Part shown: in pieces, positions 11,890 through 47,999 of the stretch
Position numbering within the stretch: position 1 is the first letter of the stretch
Layout of the letters: the number at the start of each line of letters is the position of its first letter
Source: a virus
DNA length: 64,000 bases
UHGV virus genome: UHGV-0211740
Strand: one strand, 5' to 3'
The notes under the pieces: model-generated
The model's database searches: none
Seen by the model: the letters and a program-made list of their open reading frames with translations, nothing else
What the model was told of the DNA's origin: nothing
Position numbers and translations under genes: made by a program

Positions 11890-12423
11890 CTACAGATTGT
11901 TGCTGAGGGTGTCAAGAAAATTATCCCGTTCTTTCTCAGAGTTTTCATGGGTGTAGCTGAAAAACATATCGAGAATAACCTTATTGATATATTCCAGCTC
12001 CTCTGTATTCAGATACTTATCAGGATCTACAATGACTTCCCAAATATCGTACAGACCGCACTCATGATATCCCCAACGCCACTCAATTGTTAAACTGAGC
12101 GGCAAAGCTTTACCGTCACAAACAACCTTCCATCTACAGATGTTGGTATCTGGACGCACCTGTGCACGGTATACCTGTACAAAATCCAATTTGAATTTGA
12201 GGTACTCGTCATACAATTTAAGTACAAAGCTCTCGATTTGTGGAGACACTTTTGCAGCAAACTGTGCGTATTTGTACTTGCACTGGATGATCTTTCTGCG
12301 TTTTGCAGTTAAATTTTTTGCAGACAGTTGTTCTTCAGTGTACCTCCACCTACGGTCAACAAACGCAACAGGGTCTTTGTCCCCATAGAGGTCTTCCCAG
12401 TTAATCAGAAGCATACCTGTCAC
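11890..12423 (-). CDS. hypothetical protein
   Basis: 177-aa ORF. Confidence 0.45.
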   Translation of the reverse strand: MTGMLLINWEDLYGDKDPVAFVDRRWRYTEEQLSAKNLTAKRRKIIQCKYKYAQFAAKVSPQIESFVLKLYDEYLKFKLDFVQVYRAQVRPDTNICRWKVVCDGKALPLSLTIEWRWGYHECGLYDIWEVIVDPDKYLNTEELEYINKVILDMFFSYTHENSEKERDNFLDTLSNNL

Positions 12424-42876: not shown

Positions 42877-43164
42877 GGTTGTTTTCATGTATGATGATGA
42901 ATATCCAATTTAAAGACGAATTTGATGGCTTTATCTCCGGATGCTTTGAAACAGGATTCGGAGAAGGCTGAGTTCCCCCTAGAGGGCTTGATAGTGCACC
43001 ACACTTAAAATGGTAGGGGCAGCCAGCACATGACGATGTGACCCCAGCCAACCTGTAATAAGGTCGAGCCCAAGCGCGGTAATGGGTCTCTGGTAACCCA
43101 CTTGTTGGGTCTTGCTGGTCCAGGACGCTGGACAAGTCGCAGGGAACACCACCCTGCGGCGAAC

Positions 43165-43193
43165 TTGACAATTAGTATCTGCCGTGATAAAAT
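43165..43193 (+). promoter_or_regulatory. sigma70 consensus-like promoter
   Basis: TTGACA, 17-bp spacer, TAAAAT; upstream of 43222. Confidence 0.45.
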
Positions 43194-43572: not shown

Positions 43573-43601
43573 TTGACAAACTTTGCTTAACAGTGTAATA
43601 T
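43573..43601 (+). promoter_or_regulatory. sigma70 consensus promoter for the tRNA cluster
   Basis: TTGACA at 43573, 17-bp spacer, TAATAT at 43596. Confidence 0.5.
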
Positions 43602-43825: not shown

Positions 43826-43936
43826 AAATCCCATATTTGTGATAAATAATATAGATAATGACATTGATGTTTATCGTCGTTTATACTAGTCCCTAACTGT
43901 TCGAAAATCAGTGTCATTATCAGTGTTGTTTATAAA

Positions 43937-44026: not shown

Positions 44027-44124
44027 GATCGTGGATCATGAAATTAAGCGAGCGCCGGAAGCAGAACCGGATTAACAAATGTTACAGTCGTCATCGCCGA
44101 CTAGCAGCATGATCCACATAATAT

Positions 44125-44221
44125 GCTAGGTAAGCCCTTTGGCAAGGGCGAGGATTTTTAATCCTGAAAATAGACGAAGCAGTCGTTGAATACATAGGTG
44201 GTTCGATTCCATCGCCTAGCA
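44125..44221 (+). tRNA. atypical 97-nt tRNA-like gene (possible pseudo-tRNA or non-canonical tRNA)
   Basis: Perfect acceptor stem GCTAGGT/GCCTAGC and canonical T-arm GGTGGTTCGATTCCATC, but no clean 5-bp anticodon stem with 7-nt loop (closest is AGGA/TCCT with loop TTTTTAA) plus about 30 nt of extra internal sequence; no encoded CCA. Confidence 0.35.
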
Positions 44222-44228
44222 CCTTTTT

Positions 44229-44304
44229 GCTGATGTAGCACAATTGGTAGTGCAATTGATTTGTAATCAATAGGTTGCAGGTTCAAGTCCTGCCATCAGC
44301 ACCA
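44229..44304 (+). tRNA. tRNA-Thr (anticodon TGT)
   Basis: Acceptor GCTGATG/CATCAGC, anticodon stem-loop ATTGA-TTTGTAA-TCAAT, T-loop GGTTCAAGTCC, CCA encoded. Confidence 0.8.
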
Positions 44305-44781: not shown

Positions 44782-44886
44782 GTATTAGTCTCCTTTTAGT
44801 TAGTTTAGATCTATTTAGGTTACTCAATTTTAACCCGCCCCGTTAGCTGTATGGCTGCGGGGTTTTTTCGTTTCTGGAGCCGTAAA

Positions 44887-45285
44887 ATGATTTCAGTTTT
44901 AACATGGCTGGGCAGGTATAAAGGGGTCATAAAAGGTTTAGTTTTTGCAGCAACTCTTGGTATAGCCTATCTTGGTGCCGTATATTGGTTTAATTCTAAG
45001 CTTGACACTGCTTACCAGGAGGGTGTGACAGCAACAGAGTTGAAGTGGGAACGGATCCTTGATCAGCAACAAAAGCAAGCTGACAGGATTAAAATGGGCC
45101 ATGCAGAGGAGGTTAAAAACCTTGAAAAATCCCTTTCTGACCTGCAGGATAAATTAAGTATAGCTGAGAAGGCAGGTAAAGAAAAGCAGATTATTTACCT
45201 CCAATCGCCTGAAGGTAAGAAGTCAACACTTCCTGATCAGCTTATAGAGATTTATAATGAGAGTATCAATCAGGAGGGTCGATGA
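44887..45285 (+). CDS. putative i-spanin (Rz-like)
   Basis: Start refined downstream of a terminator-like hairpin; N-terminal TM VIKGLVFAATLGIAYLGAVYWF followed by a coiled-coil periplasmic domain. Confidence 0.5.
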   Translation: MISVLTWLGRYKGVIKGLVFAATLGIAYLGAVYWFNSKLDTAYQEGVTATELKWERILDQQQKQADRIKMGHAEEVKNLEKSLSDLQDKLSIAEKAGKEKQIIYLQSPEGKKSTLPDQLIEIYNESINQEGR

Positions 45286-45569
45286 GAGTTGCTGCACTAC
45301 TTATTATGTGCTTGTTATTATGTGGGTGTACAACCAGCGTTGAGAGAGAATACAAGATTGACCCTCCGGATGTAGGGAGGTTGATTGTTAAACCACCAGA
45401 GGGTGCCATGAAACCACCTGCTAAAGCCGTGCCTTTGAAGAAGGGTGCCCCGGATGCGGTGAATTCTGGCATTATGAGGGATAATAACCTATCTTGCAGT
45501 AATGATAGAGCTAAATTAATCATTTTGCAAGACTATATTAGAACACTGTTTCCAAAGGAGAGAGGTTAA
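45282..45569 (+). CDS. putative o-spanin (Rz1-like lipoprotein)
   Basis: Lipobox LLLCGC near the N-terminus, proline-rich mature region, overlaps i-spanin stop. Confidence 0.55.
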   Translation: MRVAALLIMCLLLCGCTTSVEREYKIDPPDVGRLIVKPPEGAMKPPAKAVPLKKGAPDAVNSGIMRDNNLSCSNDRAKLIILQDYIRTLFPKERG

Positions 45570-45994
45570 TGTCTAAGATTTACGGACCGTGTTCTGAAAA
45601 GCAGAAGATGATCCTGGAAAATGATGCAGATATTTTGGTAATTGGCGGGGCTGCAGGATCTGGCAAGTCATTCCTCTTGCAGCTAATGCCGCTTAAAATT
45701 ATTGATGACCCGCACAGCTCTGTGGTTATGTTCCGAAGAACAACCCCACAGTTGGAAGGTGAGGGGGGACTATGGCCTAAAGCAGTAGCTATTTATAGTG
45801 ATCTGCCAGAAAACATTAAGCCAAAGTTTAGAGAGAAGGATCATAAGTTCATTTTTCCACGGTTTGATCCGAGCACTGGCAAGTGGGACAGGAGCAAAAA
45901 GGGAGCTGTTGTAAAATACTGCCACATGGAATATGTCCAAGATAAGCTTAACCATCAGGGTTTGGAATACACCATGGTTTGCTTCGATGAGGGT
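45569..45994 (+). CDS. terL: terminase large subunit, exon 1 (ATPase N-terminal part)
   Basis: Walker A GGAAGSGKS and Walker B MVCFDE; reading frame terminates at a TAA that begins the intron. Confidence 0.75.
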
Positions 45995-46877
45995 TAATTT
46001 GTAGCTCTCGTAAAACCTCCCTAATTGCGGGGAAATCTTTATTATTGACACCACCAATCTGTCATGGTAACATGATAGAGGCTTCGAAGAGAGATCGAAG
46101 GTATGGTAACAGTGTGTTAATTTAGATAATCCGCAGCGAAGCATCCGAGAGGATGAACGTTCAACGACTAGTCGAAAGACGTAGAATCAAGCGATTCGAA
46201 ACGGGAGGGTGCATGTGTAATACTAAAAAATGTATGGATTGCCAAAGAGTTCTACCTATTGATGATTTCTTTTTATCATCTAAGAGCAAGGATGGATACT
46301 CAGGTACATGCAAGGAATGCTATATGTACTACAGGAAGGGTGGATCTCGTAAAAACAAAAATATGGTTAAGAGAGATGACGCAGCATTGTTTATTCAAGA
46401 CTTGCTGAAGAAAGGTGAACTTTTTGAATGCAAATCTTGTCATAAAAGTATGCTCGCTGATAGTTTTTACACAAAACGTGACTATGGCAAAGTATATCTG
46501 GTTACGAACAGGTGTAAGATGTGTGAAAAGTTTTATCAGATTGAGAAGAAATTTCACATAACAAAAGATGAATACTATCGTCTACTCTCAGATCAAGATC
46601 ATAAGTGTGCCATTTGTAGAATATCTCTTGATGAGTATAGGACGCAAGGGTACAGAGATTTCTTTTGTGTTGATCATGACCATAAAACTGGTGCTGTAAG
46701 AGGGTTGCTTTGTGATAAATGCAACAGAGCTTTAGGCTTCTTCCAAGAAGATGAGGAAACTATTCTTAAAGCGGCAGAATATTTACACATTCATAAGATA
46801 TAGTCTGGTCTGCATGGAGACATGCAGCTGCCTGAAAATGGCGGGGCAAGACTAGCGACCTTGCCCGAACATAAACG
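45995..46877 (+). mobile_element. group I self-splicing intron carrying a homing endonuclease ORF (3-prime boundary approximate)
   Basis: Core elements in canonical order: P AATTGCGGGGAAA (~46030), Q AATCCGCAGC (46128), R GTTCAACGACTAGTC (46159), S AAGATATAGTCTGG (46795); internal guide GCTCTC pairs with exon end GAGGGT. Confidence 0.65.
46153..46803 (+). CDS. intron-encoded homing endonuclease, Endonuclease VII/HNH-like
   Basis: Cys-rich N-terminus and CVDHDHKTGAVRGLLCDKCN Endo VII core; ORF lies between intron R and S elements; true start may be an internal ATG. Confidence 0.65.
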   Translation: MNVQRLVERRRIKRFETGGCMCNTKKCMDCQRVLPIDDFFLSSKSKDGYSGTCKECYMYYRKGGSRKNKNMVKRDDAALFIQDLLKKGELFECKSCHKSMLADSFYTKRDYGKVYLVTNRCKMCEKFYQIEKKFHITKDEYYRLLSDQDHKCAICRISLDEYRTQGYRDFFCVDHDHKTGAVRGLLCDKCNRALGFFQEDEETILKAAEYLHIHKI

Positions 46878-47999
46878 ACACAATTCGAATGGGAGCAGAT
46901 AGACTATCTGATGTCTCGTTTGCGATCTCAGTCAAAGTATCCATCAAGAATGGTTATCAGCTGTAACCCCGACTCAGAGCATATGCTTGCCAAACTGGTT
47001 AGATGGTGGCTGGACGATGAAGGGTATCCAGATCCGGAGAAATGTGGCAAGAAAAGATATTTTATCCGGCGTGACGGTGAATTTATTTGGGGAGACTCTA
47101 AAGAGGAGTTGATAGAGAAATACACCACAGTTAATGGACTGGGTGTGGAGATCAAGCCAAGACCGTTGTCATTCTCGTTTATAGGCGCAACAATATTCGA
47201 TAATCCTGTCTGCTTGAGAGACAACCCAGAATACCTTGCTTTCCTTGAAGGTCTGCCAGAACTGGAAAAAGCTCAGCTTCTTCATGGTAACTGGTTTGCC
47301 AAACCTGAGGGTGCGAACTACTTTCAAAGATCTTTCCTTCGTGATGCCGACAGCGTACCTTTAGGGTCTGTGTCTTGCAGGGCATGGGATAAAGCTGGAA
47401 CTGAAAGAACTTCAGGTAATAAATTCCCTGACTTTACTGCCAGTGTCAAGGTAAGTAAAGATAGTGATGGATTCTACTACCTGTCAGGAGATTATTGTCC
47501 GGAGAACGTGGATGACGGGAGATATTCCACAGGTCTGGAAGGCAAGTTCTGTAAAAAGGCTGGCGAACGAGATGTGATCATCAGGAAACAGGCGCAGTTT
47601 GATGGTGATGATTGTATAATCGTATTCTCTGTGGACCCCGGTCAGGCAGGTAAGAGTGAGTTCTTAACCTCATCCAGATCCTTGCTCGCCGAAGGTTTCA
47701 GGGTTGAAGAAGACCCAATGCCTTCCAACAAATCTAAACTGACAAGGTTCTCACCTTTTGCCAATCTTGCCCAACAAGGGATGGTGAGGATTGTAAAATC
47801 CAGTTTCCATCCTGATACTTTGGAAGCATTTCTGACTGAACTTGAAAAGTTCAACGGGGAAAGATCAACATTTAACAGAAAAGACGACTGGGCCGACTGT
47901 GTAGCATCTGCGATTAATTTCCTGGAGAAAGAGGAGGTAGCACTGCCTTGTGTGATCCCATCAATATCATCACCTTCTATGTTTAAGCGTTTTATCTAA
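46878..47999 (+). CDS. terL: terminase large subunit, exon 2 (ATPase C-motif and nuclease domain); exon start approximate
   Basis: In-frame continuation with no stops from 46875; contains VISCNP coupling-motif-like segment and C-terminal nuclease-like acidic residues; possible splice acceptors after G at 46877, 46892, 46895 or 46898. Confidence 0.65.
   Translation, partial: TQFEWEQIDYLMSRLRSQSKYPSRMVISCNPDSEHMLAKLVRWWLDDEGYPDPEKCGKKRYFIRRDGEFIWGDSKEELIEKYTTVNGLGVEIKPRPLSFSFIGATIFDNPVCLRDNPEYLAFLEGLPELEKAQLLHGNWFAKPEGANYFQRSFLRDADSVPLGSVSCRAWDKAGTERTSGNKFPDFTASVKVSKDSDGFYYLSGDYCPENVDDGRYSTGLEGKFCKKAGERDVIIRKQAQFDGDDCIIVFSVDPGQAGKSEFLTSSRSLLAEGFRVEEDPMPSNKSKLTRFSPFANLAQQGMVRIVKSSFHPDTLEAFLTELEKFNGERSTFNRKDDWADCVASAINFLEKEEVALPCVIPSISSPSMFKRFI

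Follow-up and report, generated by a model that had tools for sequence, protein, structure and literature searches.

In the transfer RNA (tRNA)-like domain of tmRNA, the tRNA module of the Y-RNA-like YrlA and mascRNA, mimicry of the acceptor stem, T arm and elbow is kept while the anticodon function is lost or replaced. Phage T4 encodes two small stable RNAs, C and D (species 1 and 2; rnaC and rnaD), at the end of its tRNA cluster and packed against tRNA genes, of which rnaC has a T arm and rnaD a CCA end, tRNA-like termini without a known function. Phage T5 encodes a PARIS-resistant tRNA-Lys(UUU), a normal 76-nt cloverleaf with U39A and A41C, together with a tRNA-Thr(UGU) (PMC11464382, PMC12409363). 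Bacterial tRNAs with 4-bp anticodon stems, in which 27:43 is present but unpaired and the arm length is kept, can function (PMC13092985). The locus described here lies in a stretch of virus DNA of 64,000 nucleotides (UHGV virus genome UHGV-0211740, hereafter the window) from an rV5-like phage (Vequintavirus), where an element of 97 nt occupies positions 44125-44221 of the + strand inside a tRNA operon. The element belongs to one coherent, previously unrecognised and mostly unannotated family that rV5-like (Vequintavirinae) and phi92-like phages carry in their tRNA clusters. Judged from sequence comparison, with a probability of about 0.5, it would be a functional non-canonical tRNA-like RNA that undergoes tRNA-type processing, is probably chargeable (with lysine here and glycine ancestrally) and has a conserved role beyond ordinary decoding, most plausibly tRNA mimicry in phage-host conflict.

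The element shares with canonical tRNA (RF00005) a 7-bp acceptor stem, a 4-bp D stem with G18 and G19, a 5-bp T stem with a UUCGAUU loop, the elbow pair 19:56, a site in an operon and a full or partial CCA. It departs from canonical tRNA by an anticodon-position arm of 15-16 nt in place of 17, a 31-nt variable region with single-stranded linkers, an A.U at 8:14 and a non-conserved anticodon. The original prediction, made from the window alone, had described an atypical tRNA-like gene here, and sequence, Rfam and the minimum-free-energy fold confirmed that the gene is real and has the coordinates and anatomy proposed. The acceptor stem, formed by GCUAGGU (44125-44131) and GCCUAGC (44214-44220), has the seven pairs claimed but is not perfect as stated, six being Watson-Crick and one a U7.G66 wobble, where most relatives have U-A. 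It is followed by A8 and A9 (44132-44133), with A8 opposite U14 in place of the canonical U8.A14, and by the D arm (44134-44149), whose 4-bp stem GCCC/GGGC (44134-44137/44146-44149) closes the 8-nt loop UUUGGCAA with G18 and G19. The anticodon-arm analogue, G-AGGA-UUUUUAA-UCCU-G (44150-44166), has its strands at 44151-44154 and 44162-44165 and its loop at 44155-44161. The insert of 31 nt (44166-44196), predicted as about 30 extra nucleotides, lies 5' of the T arm and consists of a 5' linker GAAAAUA (44166-44172), an extra-arm hairpin GACGA-AGCAG-UCGUU with a 5-bp stem (44173-44187) and a 3' linker GAAUACAUA (44188-44196). The T arm, GGUGG-UUCGAUU-CCAUC (44197-44213), has the canonical T loop, again as predicted. 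The 3' acceptor strand ends with discriminator A73 at 44221 (44214-44221), and the 3' trailer CC-UUUUU (44222-44228), read from the sequence, adjoins tRNA-Thr(UGU) at 44229. All these features are on the + strand. The remark that no CCA is encoded here, unlike in the six neighbouring tRNAs (6/6 encode it), holds for the final A76 only, as the sequence does supply C74 and C75 (A73-CC-UUUUU).

The hairpin at the anticodon position can be folded in two ways, with 4 bp and a 7-nt loop or with 5 bp and a 5-nt loop. The original prediction had found a 4-bp stem with loop TTTTTAA instead of a normal anticodon arm, and the arm is indeed short; the loop itself, which the prediction missed, also fits a textbook 7-nt anticodon loop with U33, UUU (44157-44159), A37 and A38. 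The arm measures 15 nt here against the canonical 17, the shortfall being 2 nt physically missing and not just an unpaired 27:43. When read with the 7-nt loop it has four Watson-Crick pairs like the bacterial 4-bp-stem tRNAs, from which it differs in its missing nucleotides and its 5-bp/5-nt alternative. The minimum-free-energy fold was the cloverleaf with the extra hairpin (-33.6 kcal/mol, z=-3.67). The Rfam tRNA model (RF00005) gave 29.4 bits against a gathering score of 29 (E=0.0014 in a 1.9-kb search) and handled the insert as a 26-nt insertion. Together with conservation and covariation across phage genera, the Rfam score and the fold z-score place the element beyond chance.

Close variants were collected by scanning phage, IMG/VR and metagenome collections, which produced nine distinct sequences with zero indels. 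Seven of the 13 variable columns lay in stems and all seven left pairing intact; at two pairs, acceptor 4:69 and extra-arm 53:59, the changes were double and compensatory. Outside the stems, variation fell at position 9, at the loop's middle base (U or A), at the discriminator (A, C or U) and at three bases in the loop of the extra hairpin, six columns in all. All stem cells paired (225/225), compared to 25-49% in slid controls. In the extra-arm hairpin of Avunavirus, an A-U pair was replaced by G-C, a compensatory change. Between Vequintavirus and Avunavirus the element was 91-92% identical, compared to 71-78% for same-anticodon tRNAs, and the likeness stopped at the element borders.

The original prediction had listed a degenerate pseudo-tRNA among its options. 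A decaying, functionless gene would fit the non-canonical anticodon arm, the incomplete CCA, the borderline tRNA-model score and the partial deletion in phage V18 (L008 1440-1547), in which tRNA-Ser, the spacer RNA and most of the element are lost by a natural deletion that leaves the element's last ~40 nt (3' third) joined to the 5' part of tRNA-Tyr. The T arms of tRNA-Tyr and the element differ by a single base, and this near-identity could promote recombination of the V18 type. The relaxed constraint of a pseudogene was not seen, as no pair was broken in the nine close variants and the stem substitutions observed there and across the family were compensated or wobble-compatible. In addition, the elbow pair 19:56 covaries, conservation between genera is above that of bona fide tRNAs, and the element is kept in roughly 190 sequenced phages of two subfamilies. 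Decay without function was therefore judged very improbable.

A covariance model built from the nine close variants found homologs over six phage lineages at 41-124 bits (E 4e-07 to 4e-27), with scores of 79 bits in Seunavirus, 63 in Mydovirus, 55 in the phi92-like Justusliebigvirus and 41 in a Serratia phage, and further matches in several IMG/VR genomes. The total of roughly 190 phages is made up of ~114 Vequintavirus records and ~80 others. In ~80 GenBank records the stretch has no annotation or is marked as a spurious small open reading frame (ORF). No family member was found in the loci of Certrevirus CR8 and Phapecoctavirus ESCO37 examined, which comprised only regions near the terminase gene. 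An E. coli host origin was not supported by 5,426 complete E. coli genomes (0 matches), and bacterial genomes gave no convincing match, with one pattern match in a metagenome-assembled genome failing model confirmation. Descent from a known tRNA was also rejected, with no convincing kinship to any ARAGORN tRNA of six loci or to sister-genus Leu(UAA), Ile(GAU) and Lys(UUU). The family model gave 0 matches on T4 70908-71171 at E<0.1; rnaC and rnaD, which are longer (119-139 nt) and have another internal architecture, are analogues and not relatives. No sequence or model similarity linked the element to tmRNA, YrlA or mascRNA, and in contrast to these the family keeps a full D arm and an anticodon-position hairpin. 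ARAGORN found no tmRNA, the Rfam match to YrlA was insignificant and lay elsewhere than the element, and neither a selenocysteine tRNA nor a tmRNA gained support from ARAGORN or Rfam.

In a family alignment of 17 distinct sequences, 98.6% of stem cells paired and 18 of 25 pairs changed on both sides, with slid controls at 30-45%. An independent MAFFT alignment with RNAalifold recovered the acceptor, D, hairpin and T stems with 11 compensated pairs. In the acceptor, G1-C72 and C2-G71 were invariant (17/17) while 3:70, 4:69, 5:68 and 7:66 covaried. The D stem covaried across genera (GACC/GGUC, GCGG/CCGC), as did the T stem. All pairs of the extra-arm hairpin (5/5) covaried family-wide, and its length, loop and sequence vary. 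At the elbow, 19:56 was G-C in 13 sequences and U-A in 4, so that D loop UUUGGCAA goes with T loop UUCGAUU and D loop UUUGUCAA with T loop UUAGAUU; 18:55 was an invariant G.U, and 8:14 was A.U in 16/17 sequences. Overall, the family has the tRNA features of a 7-bp acceptor on a 5-bp T stem with the T-loop consensus and a D arm with a G18 G19 elbow to 55/56, but lacks a 5-bp anticodon stem with a 7-nt loop and U33. The pattern in these comparisons points to purifying selection on structure acting on an L-shaped, tRNA-like fold.

The arm at the anticodon position was 15-16 nt in every lineage, always stood between invariant G residues and had a covarying stem. Its loops read UUUUUAA, UUUAUAA, CAUCCA, CAGCCA, CCUCCA, CAUCAAA and GUCCG, several of them without U33, and the triplets of the homologs were of UAU, UCC, GCC or UCA type and not one shared anticodon. 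A fifth arm pair covaried between U-A and C-G in RNAalifold, which favours small loops of 5-6 nt. Since the loop is neither conserved nor canonical across the family, its conserved function is most likely other than standard decoding. The linkers are better kept. GAAAAUA does not differ between Vequinta-, Avuna- and Seuna-type copies and is nearly unchanged in those of Mydo- and phi92-type; GAAUACAUA is identical in the first three types and is replaced by AAAUACAUA in Mydovirus and AAAUACGAAA in phi92-like phages. Both linkers have diverged in the Serratia phage copy. An antisense role of the linkers was rejected, as the complement of the 3' linker had five near-matches in the window, a marginal enrichment, with four on the non-coding strand, and the complement of the 5' linker was not enriched in the window. 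A shared insert motif, TAGNCGNAGCAGNNGTTGAA, was also rejected because 72 of its 75 IMG/VR matches were chance occurrences in ordinary non-tRNA sequence and the three others, in jumbo phages, have a different fold without a D arm. These three (L022 5312-5395, L023 7105-7188 and L028 5173-5256, in GC-rich phages of ~220 kb) are tRNA-like genes in their own right, with acceptor stem, T arm, CCA and an ACG 'anticodon' hairpin; their insert UAGUCGUAGCAGGAGUUGAA shares 17/22 positions with that of the element, a likeness that is probably coincidental.

The ends of the element vary between genera in a way that bears on charging. Seuna-, Mydo- and Serratia-type copies start 2-3 nt after the CCA of the previous tRNA and end in U73-CCA; phi92-like copies have U73 with a 3' end of UCA or CCC instead of CCA, and their loop reads UCA. 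The window copy has A as its discriminator, whereas the Avunavirus copies combine UAU with C73 or U73 and the remaining genera all have U. In E. coli, the lysine identity set comprises UUU and A73 and the glycine set U73, G1-C72, C2-G71 and C35C36, while U73 with G71 is the signature read by the TacT toxin (PMC9976931). Seuna-, Mydo- and Serratia-type copies carry U73, G1-C72 and C2-G71 with an NCC loop triplet (UCC, GCC, UCC, UCC), which equals the glycine set, and the window copy carries the lysine set of UUU and A73, an identity that depends on formation of the 7-nt loop. Changes in the loop's middle base go with changes in the discriminator, from C35/U73 to U35/A73, a pattern confounded with phylogeny. 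The identity elements appear to have switched from glycine to lysine.

In the proposed course of events, the element would be transcribed within a polycistronic tRNA precursor, its 5' end would be cut by RNase P, and its 3' end would be set by RNase P cleavage of the adjacent tRNA-Thr and exonuclease trimming. The missing A76 would be added by the host CCA-adding enzyme and the RNA would take an L-shaped fold with an extra domain projecting from the core. Aminoacylation would be by lysyl-tRNA synthetase (LysRS) in the window phage (UUU and A73) and by glycyl-tRNA synthetase (GlyRS) in the sister genera (U73, G1-C72, C2-G71, C35C36). In its most likely role, mimicry in the conflict over tRNAs between phage and host, the RNA would engage host factors that attack tRNAs, for example anticodon nucleases or toxins of the acceptor end, as a decoy or as a resistant substitute.

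The position of the element in its operon also suits a role in processing or stability only, in which the fold would recruit RNase P and maturation enzymes, free tRNA-Thr and the upstream spacer RNA, and leave an idle excised RNA. The element is always within a few nucleotides of flanking tRNAs, the acceptor and T domains read by RNase P are the best conserved, and the anticodon loop varies freely. This is unlikely, as the neighbouring tRNAs are already RNase P substrates that need no helper and differ by genus (Thr, Ile, Leu or an HNH gene), and conservation of the linkers, D arm, 19:56, G1-C72/C2-G71 and U73-CCA would be left unexplained. Here tRNA-Thr(UGU), which starts at 44229 and directly abuts the element, is the 3' neighbour; in four other lineages the element lies 3' of tRNA-Thr(UGU), and in phi92-like phages 3' of tRNA-Leu(UAA). 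In Mydovirus phage Ro1, an HNH endonuclease gene (L016 1239-1631) is inserted exactly between tRNA-Thr and the element, and another HNH gene stands between tRNA genes at L017 5621-6127.

Existing labels of the locus disagree. BASEL phages, annotated with tRNAscan-SE, carry the homologous locus as tRNA-Lys(AAA), slur16 as 'tRNA-???(atcc)', Murica as 'tRNA-OTHER Asp|Gly' and SophiaRose as 'tRNA-Stop(tta)', while the element is unannotated in the rV5 reference. ARAGORN did not detect the window copy at default settings; at other settings it reproduced several of these labels, with calls that were mutually incompatible (Leu(taa) with introns allowed, 'tRNA-???(atcc)'). The fold behind the latter was rejected, its AUUUU/AAAAU stem being broken in 3/3 Avunavirus copies. 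An intron-containing tRNA (group I or bulge-helix-bulge) was also rejected, as the 31-nt insert sits in the variable region, no Rfam intron family matched and the Leu(taa) call is one among several inconsistent ones. The sister-genus copies examined (4/4) were not reported at the Rfam tRNA gathering threshold. The original prediction would have yielded to a standard class II tRNA with a clear anticodon missed by eye; tRNAscan-SE-based annotations do name tRNA-Lys(UUU), but this is not a standard class II tRNA. A class II-type tRNA charged through its long extra arm by an anticodon-blind leucyl- or seryl-tRNA synthetase (LeuRS or SerRS), and so recoding AAA, would draw on that arm and A73, as in bacterial tRNA-Leu, on an anticodon polymorphic across genera, like that of allo-tRNAs (PMC5389517), and on the Leu(taa) proposal. 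It seems barely credible, since linkers of 7 and 9 nt set the hairpin off from the core, an arrangement that no class II variable arm has, and since the anticodon reads UUU. C2-G71 counts among the SerRS anti-determinants (PMC9976931), the discriminator is U in most genera, there is no similarity to the phages' own tRNA-Leu(UAA), and recoding of lysine codons would be toxic proteome-wide.

Two of the options raised in the original prediction, a tRNA with a non-canonical anticodon arm or insertion and a tRNA-like decoy, are the two leading readings. Under the first, the element would be a genuine though aberrant elongator tRNA-Lys(UUU), processed, completed with CCA, charged by LysRS and reading AAA/AAG, which is the main rival reading and is tentatively entertained. 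It has U33, UUU, A37, A38 and A73, the full E. coli lysine set, is called tRNA-Lys in tRNAscan-SE-based records and shows the joint change from C35/U73 to U35/A73. ARAGORN found no other tRNA-Lys in the window cluster, whereas sister genera have normal Lys genes, Lys(UUU) in Avuna-, Mydo-, Serratia- and phi92-type phages and Lys(CUU) at the Seunavirus locus; likewise, the Avunavirus element reads UAU in a cluster where ARAGORN found no tRNA-Ile. With lysine codons at 72 per 1000 in the window, the benefit might be supply for a lysine-rich proteome or replacement of host tRNA-Lys cut by PrrC or PARIS, where the short stem and bulky insert would make a poor nuclease substrate. Four-bp anticodon stems are tolerated by functional tRNAs (PMC13092985), and a T5 tRNA-Lys rescues phage from PARIS (PMC11464382, PMC12409363). 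Against decoding stand the arm that is physically 2 nt short, the fifth-pair covariation favouring a closed 5-nt loop, loops in other genera that are unable to serve as anticodon loops, so that decoding is not the family function, and selection that keeps insert linkers without a role in decoding. In addition, the element has no notable sequence similarity to phage tRNA-Lys genes, does not encode A76 unlike its six neighbours, scores at the Rfam borderline and is missed by default ARAGORN.

The reading as a tRNA mimic might be linked to known defences through PARIS, whose AriB cuts three host tRNAs, Lys(UUU), Thr(UGU) and Asn(GUU), at the 40/41 junction of the motif U36-A-A-U-C|A41; U39A abolishes cleavage, A41C inhibits it, and T5 escapes with variant tRNAs (PMC11464382, PMC12409363). 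The PARIS targets Lys(UUU) and Thr(UGU) correspond to adjacent genes in the window cluster. As in T5, the phage has a Lys(UUU)-type gene with a non-host anticodon stem beside a tRNA-Thr(UGU), but the element keeps U39 and C40, has C41 and differs from the T5 tRNA mainly in architecture. A more specific version would see in the ~190 phages a family of matured and aminoacylated, non-decoding tRNA mimics, glycine-type ancestrally and lysine-type in Vequintavirus, that serve as decoys or substitutes against toxins reading U73 and G71 or against PrrC/PARIS, with the linkers as functional handle; it is offered as a speculative extension that is possible rather than probable.

Several points weigh against mimicry with a role beyond decoding. 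The AriB site of the element, U36-A-A-U-C-C41, keeps U39 and has A41 changed to C as in the weakly cleaved tRNA-Asn, which makes it neither a clean target nor a clean escape variant, and the target of the decoy is pure inference. Phage V18 is viable with most of the element deleted, so the element is dispensable in culture. The window copy can also be drawn with a fully canonical 7-nt lysine anticodon loop and, as the sole Lys-type gene of its cluster, fits plain decoding. Finally, the family alignment was fitted to the covariance model, and the covariation is drawn from about six lineages and hence from few independent events.

The tRNA cluster of the window is ~93% identical to that of rV5 and more than 100 relatives. 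ARAGORN (default) placed six tRNAs in it, Arg-UCU, Tyr-GUA, Ser-UGA, Thr-UGU, Met/Ile2-CAU and Pro-UGG. Apart from the element, these match codons frequent in the phage, AGA, ACA, AUA, UCA and CCA, which are rare or under-used in E. coli. A promoter-like site, TTGACA-17-TAATAT (43573-43601, + strand), lies upstream of tRNA-Arg and the tRNA operon and coincides with the annotated P(tRNA) of rV5, and a second candidate promoter-like site lies between tRNA-Tyr and tRNA-Ser (43858-43887). No terminator of the element's own was found within the operon.

The spacer between tRNA-Ser and the element (window 44027-44124, + strand; also L001:1982-2079) holds a core of ~65 nt, AAUUAAGCGA..CCGGAAGCAGAACCGGAU..CAAAUG..UACAG.CGUCAUCGCCG.C.AGC, that is nearly identical in the window phage, rV5, lambda between orf-64 and S (L006 ~1200-1270; lambda 44866-44934) and the P1-like P7/D6 downstream of their tRNAs (P7, L007 ~1500-1565). 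Its closing stem of 9-12 bp differs in sequence in each case and always pairs (fold z=-3.2). Rfam gave no match for the core, which 426 of 5,426 complete E. coli genomes carry without annotation, in prophages and on P1-like plasmids. The core is probably a structured RNA, so far undescribed, that travels with phage tRNA clusters or late regions. A GC-rich stretch at 42990-43175 was rejected as a structured RNA (z=-1.3, not significant).

Other long-insert tRNAs were also noticed. Three unrelated IMG/VR phage contigs carry canonical CCA-ending tRNAs with anticodon UAU and a variable-region insert of 20-33 nt (L018 ~12187-12287 on the - strand, L029 1658-1750 and L027 3543-3637); ARAGORN misses one of the three and labels another tRNA-Ile(tat), with a length of 93 nt. 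Together they suggest a 'long-arm tRNA(UAU)' type that recurs. In Seuna-, Mydo-, phi92-like and Avuna-type phages, the tRNA-Asn(GUU) genes measure 85-91 nt (L015 4839-4923, L016 5154-5238, L122 7678-7762 and L133 4636-4726), and in at least the first two the variable region holds an additional 4-bp hairpin, an uncommon feature in a class I identity; Asn(GUU) is a PARIS AriB target.

Downstream of the element, the large-terminase gene is apparently interrupted (window 45569-47999), with an N-terminal ORF at 45569-45997 and a C-terminal ORF at 46911-47999 separated by an ORF with an Endonuclease VII-type domain (46153-46803). The rV5 terminase annotation is joined from three pieces. Pfam searches of the neighbouring proteins were uninformative apart from DUF7230 and this Endonuclease VII-type domain.

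Standard tRNA and Rfam annotation has a blind spot for this family, which the covariance model from this analysis finds. Phage tRNAs have lately been recast from 'codon-usage helpers' to recognised counter-defence tools, and the family adds a new candidate, concrete enough to be tested, for tRNA mimicry in the conflict between phage and host. Should the RNA turn out to decode, it would be a natural example of a tRNA tolerating both a shortened anticodon arm and 31 inserted nucleotides, a point of interest for tRNA engineering.

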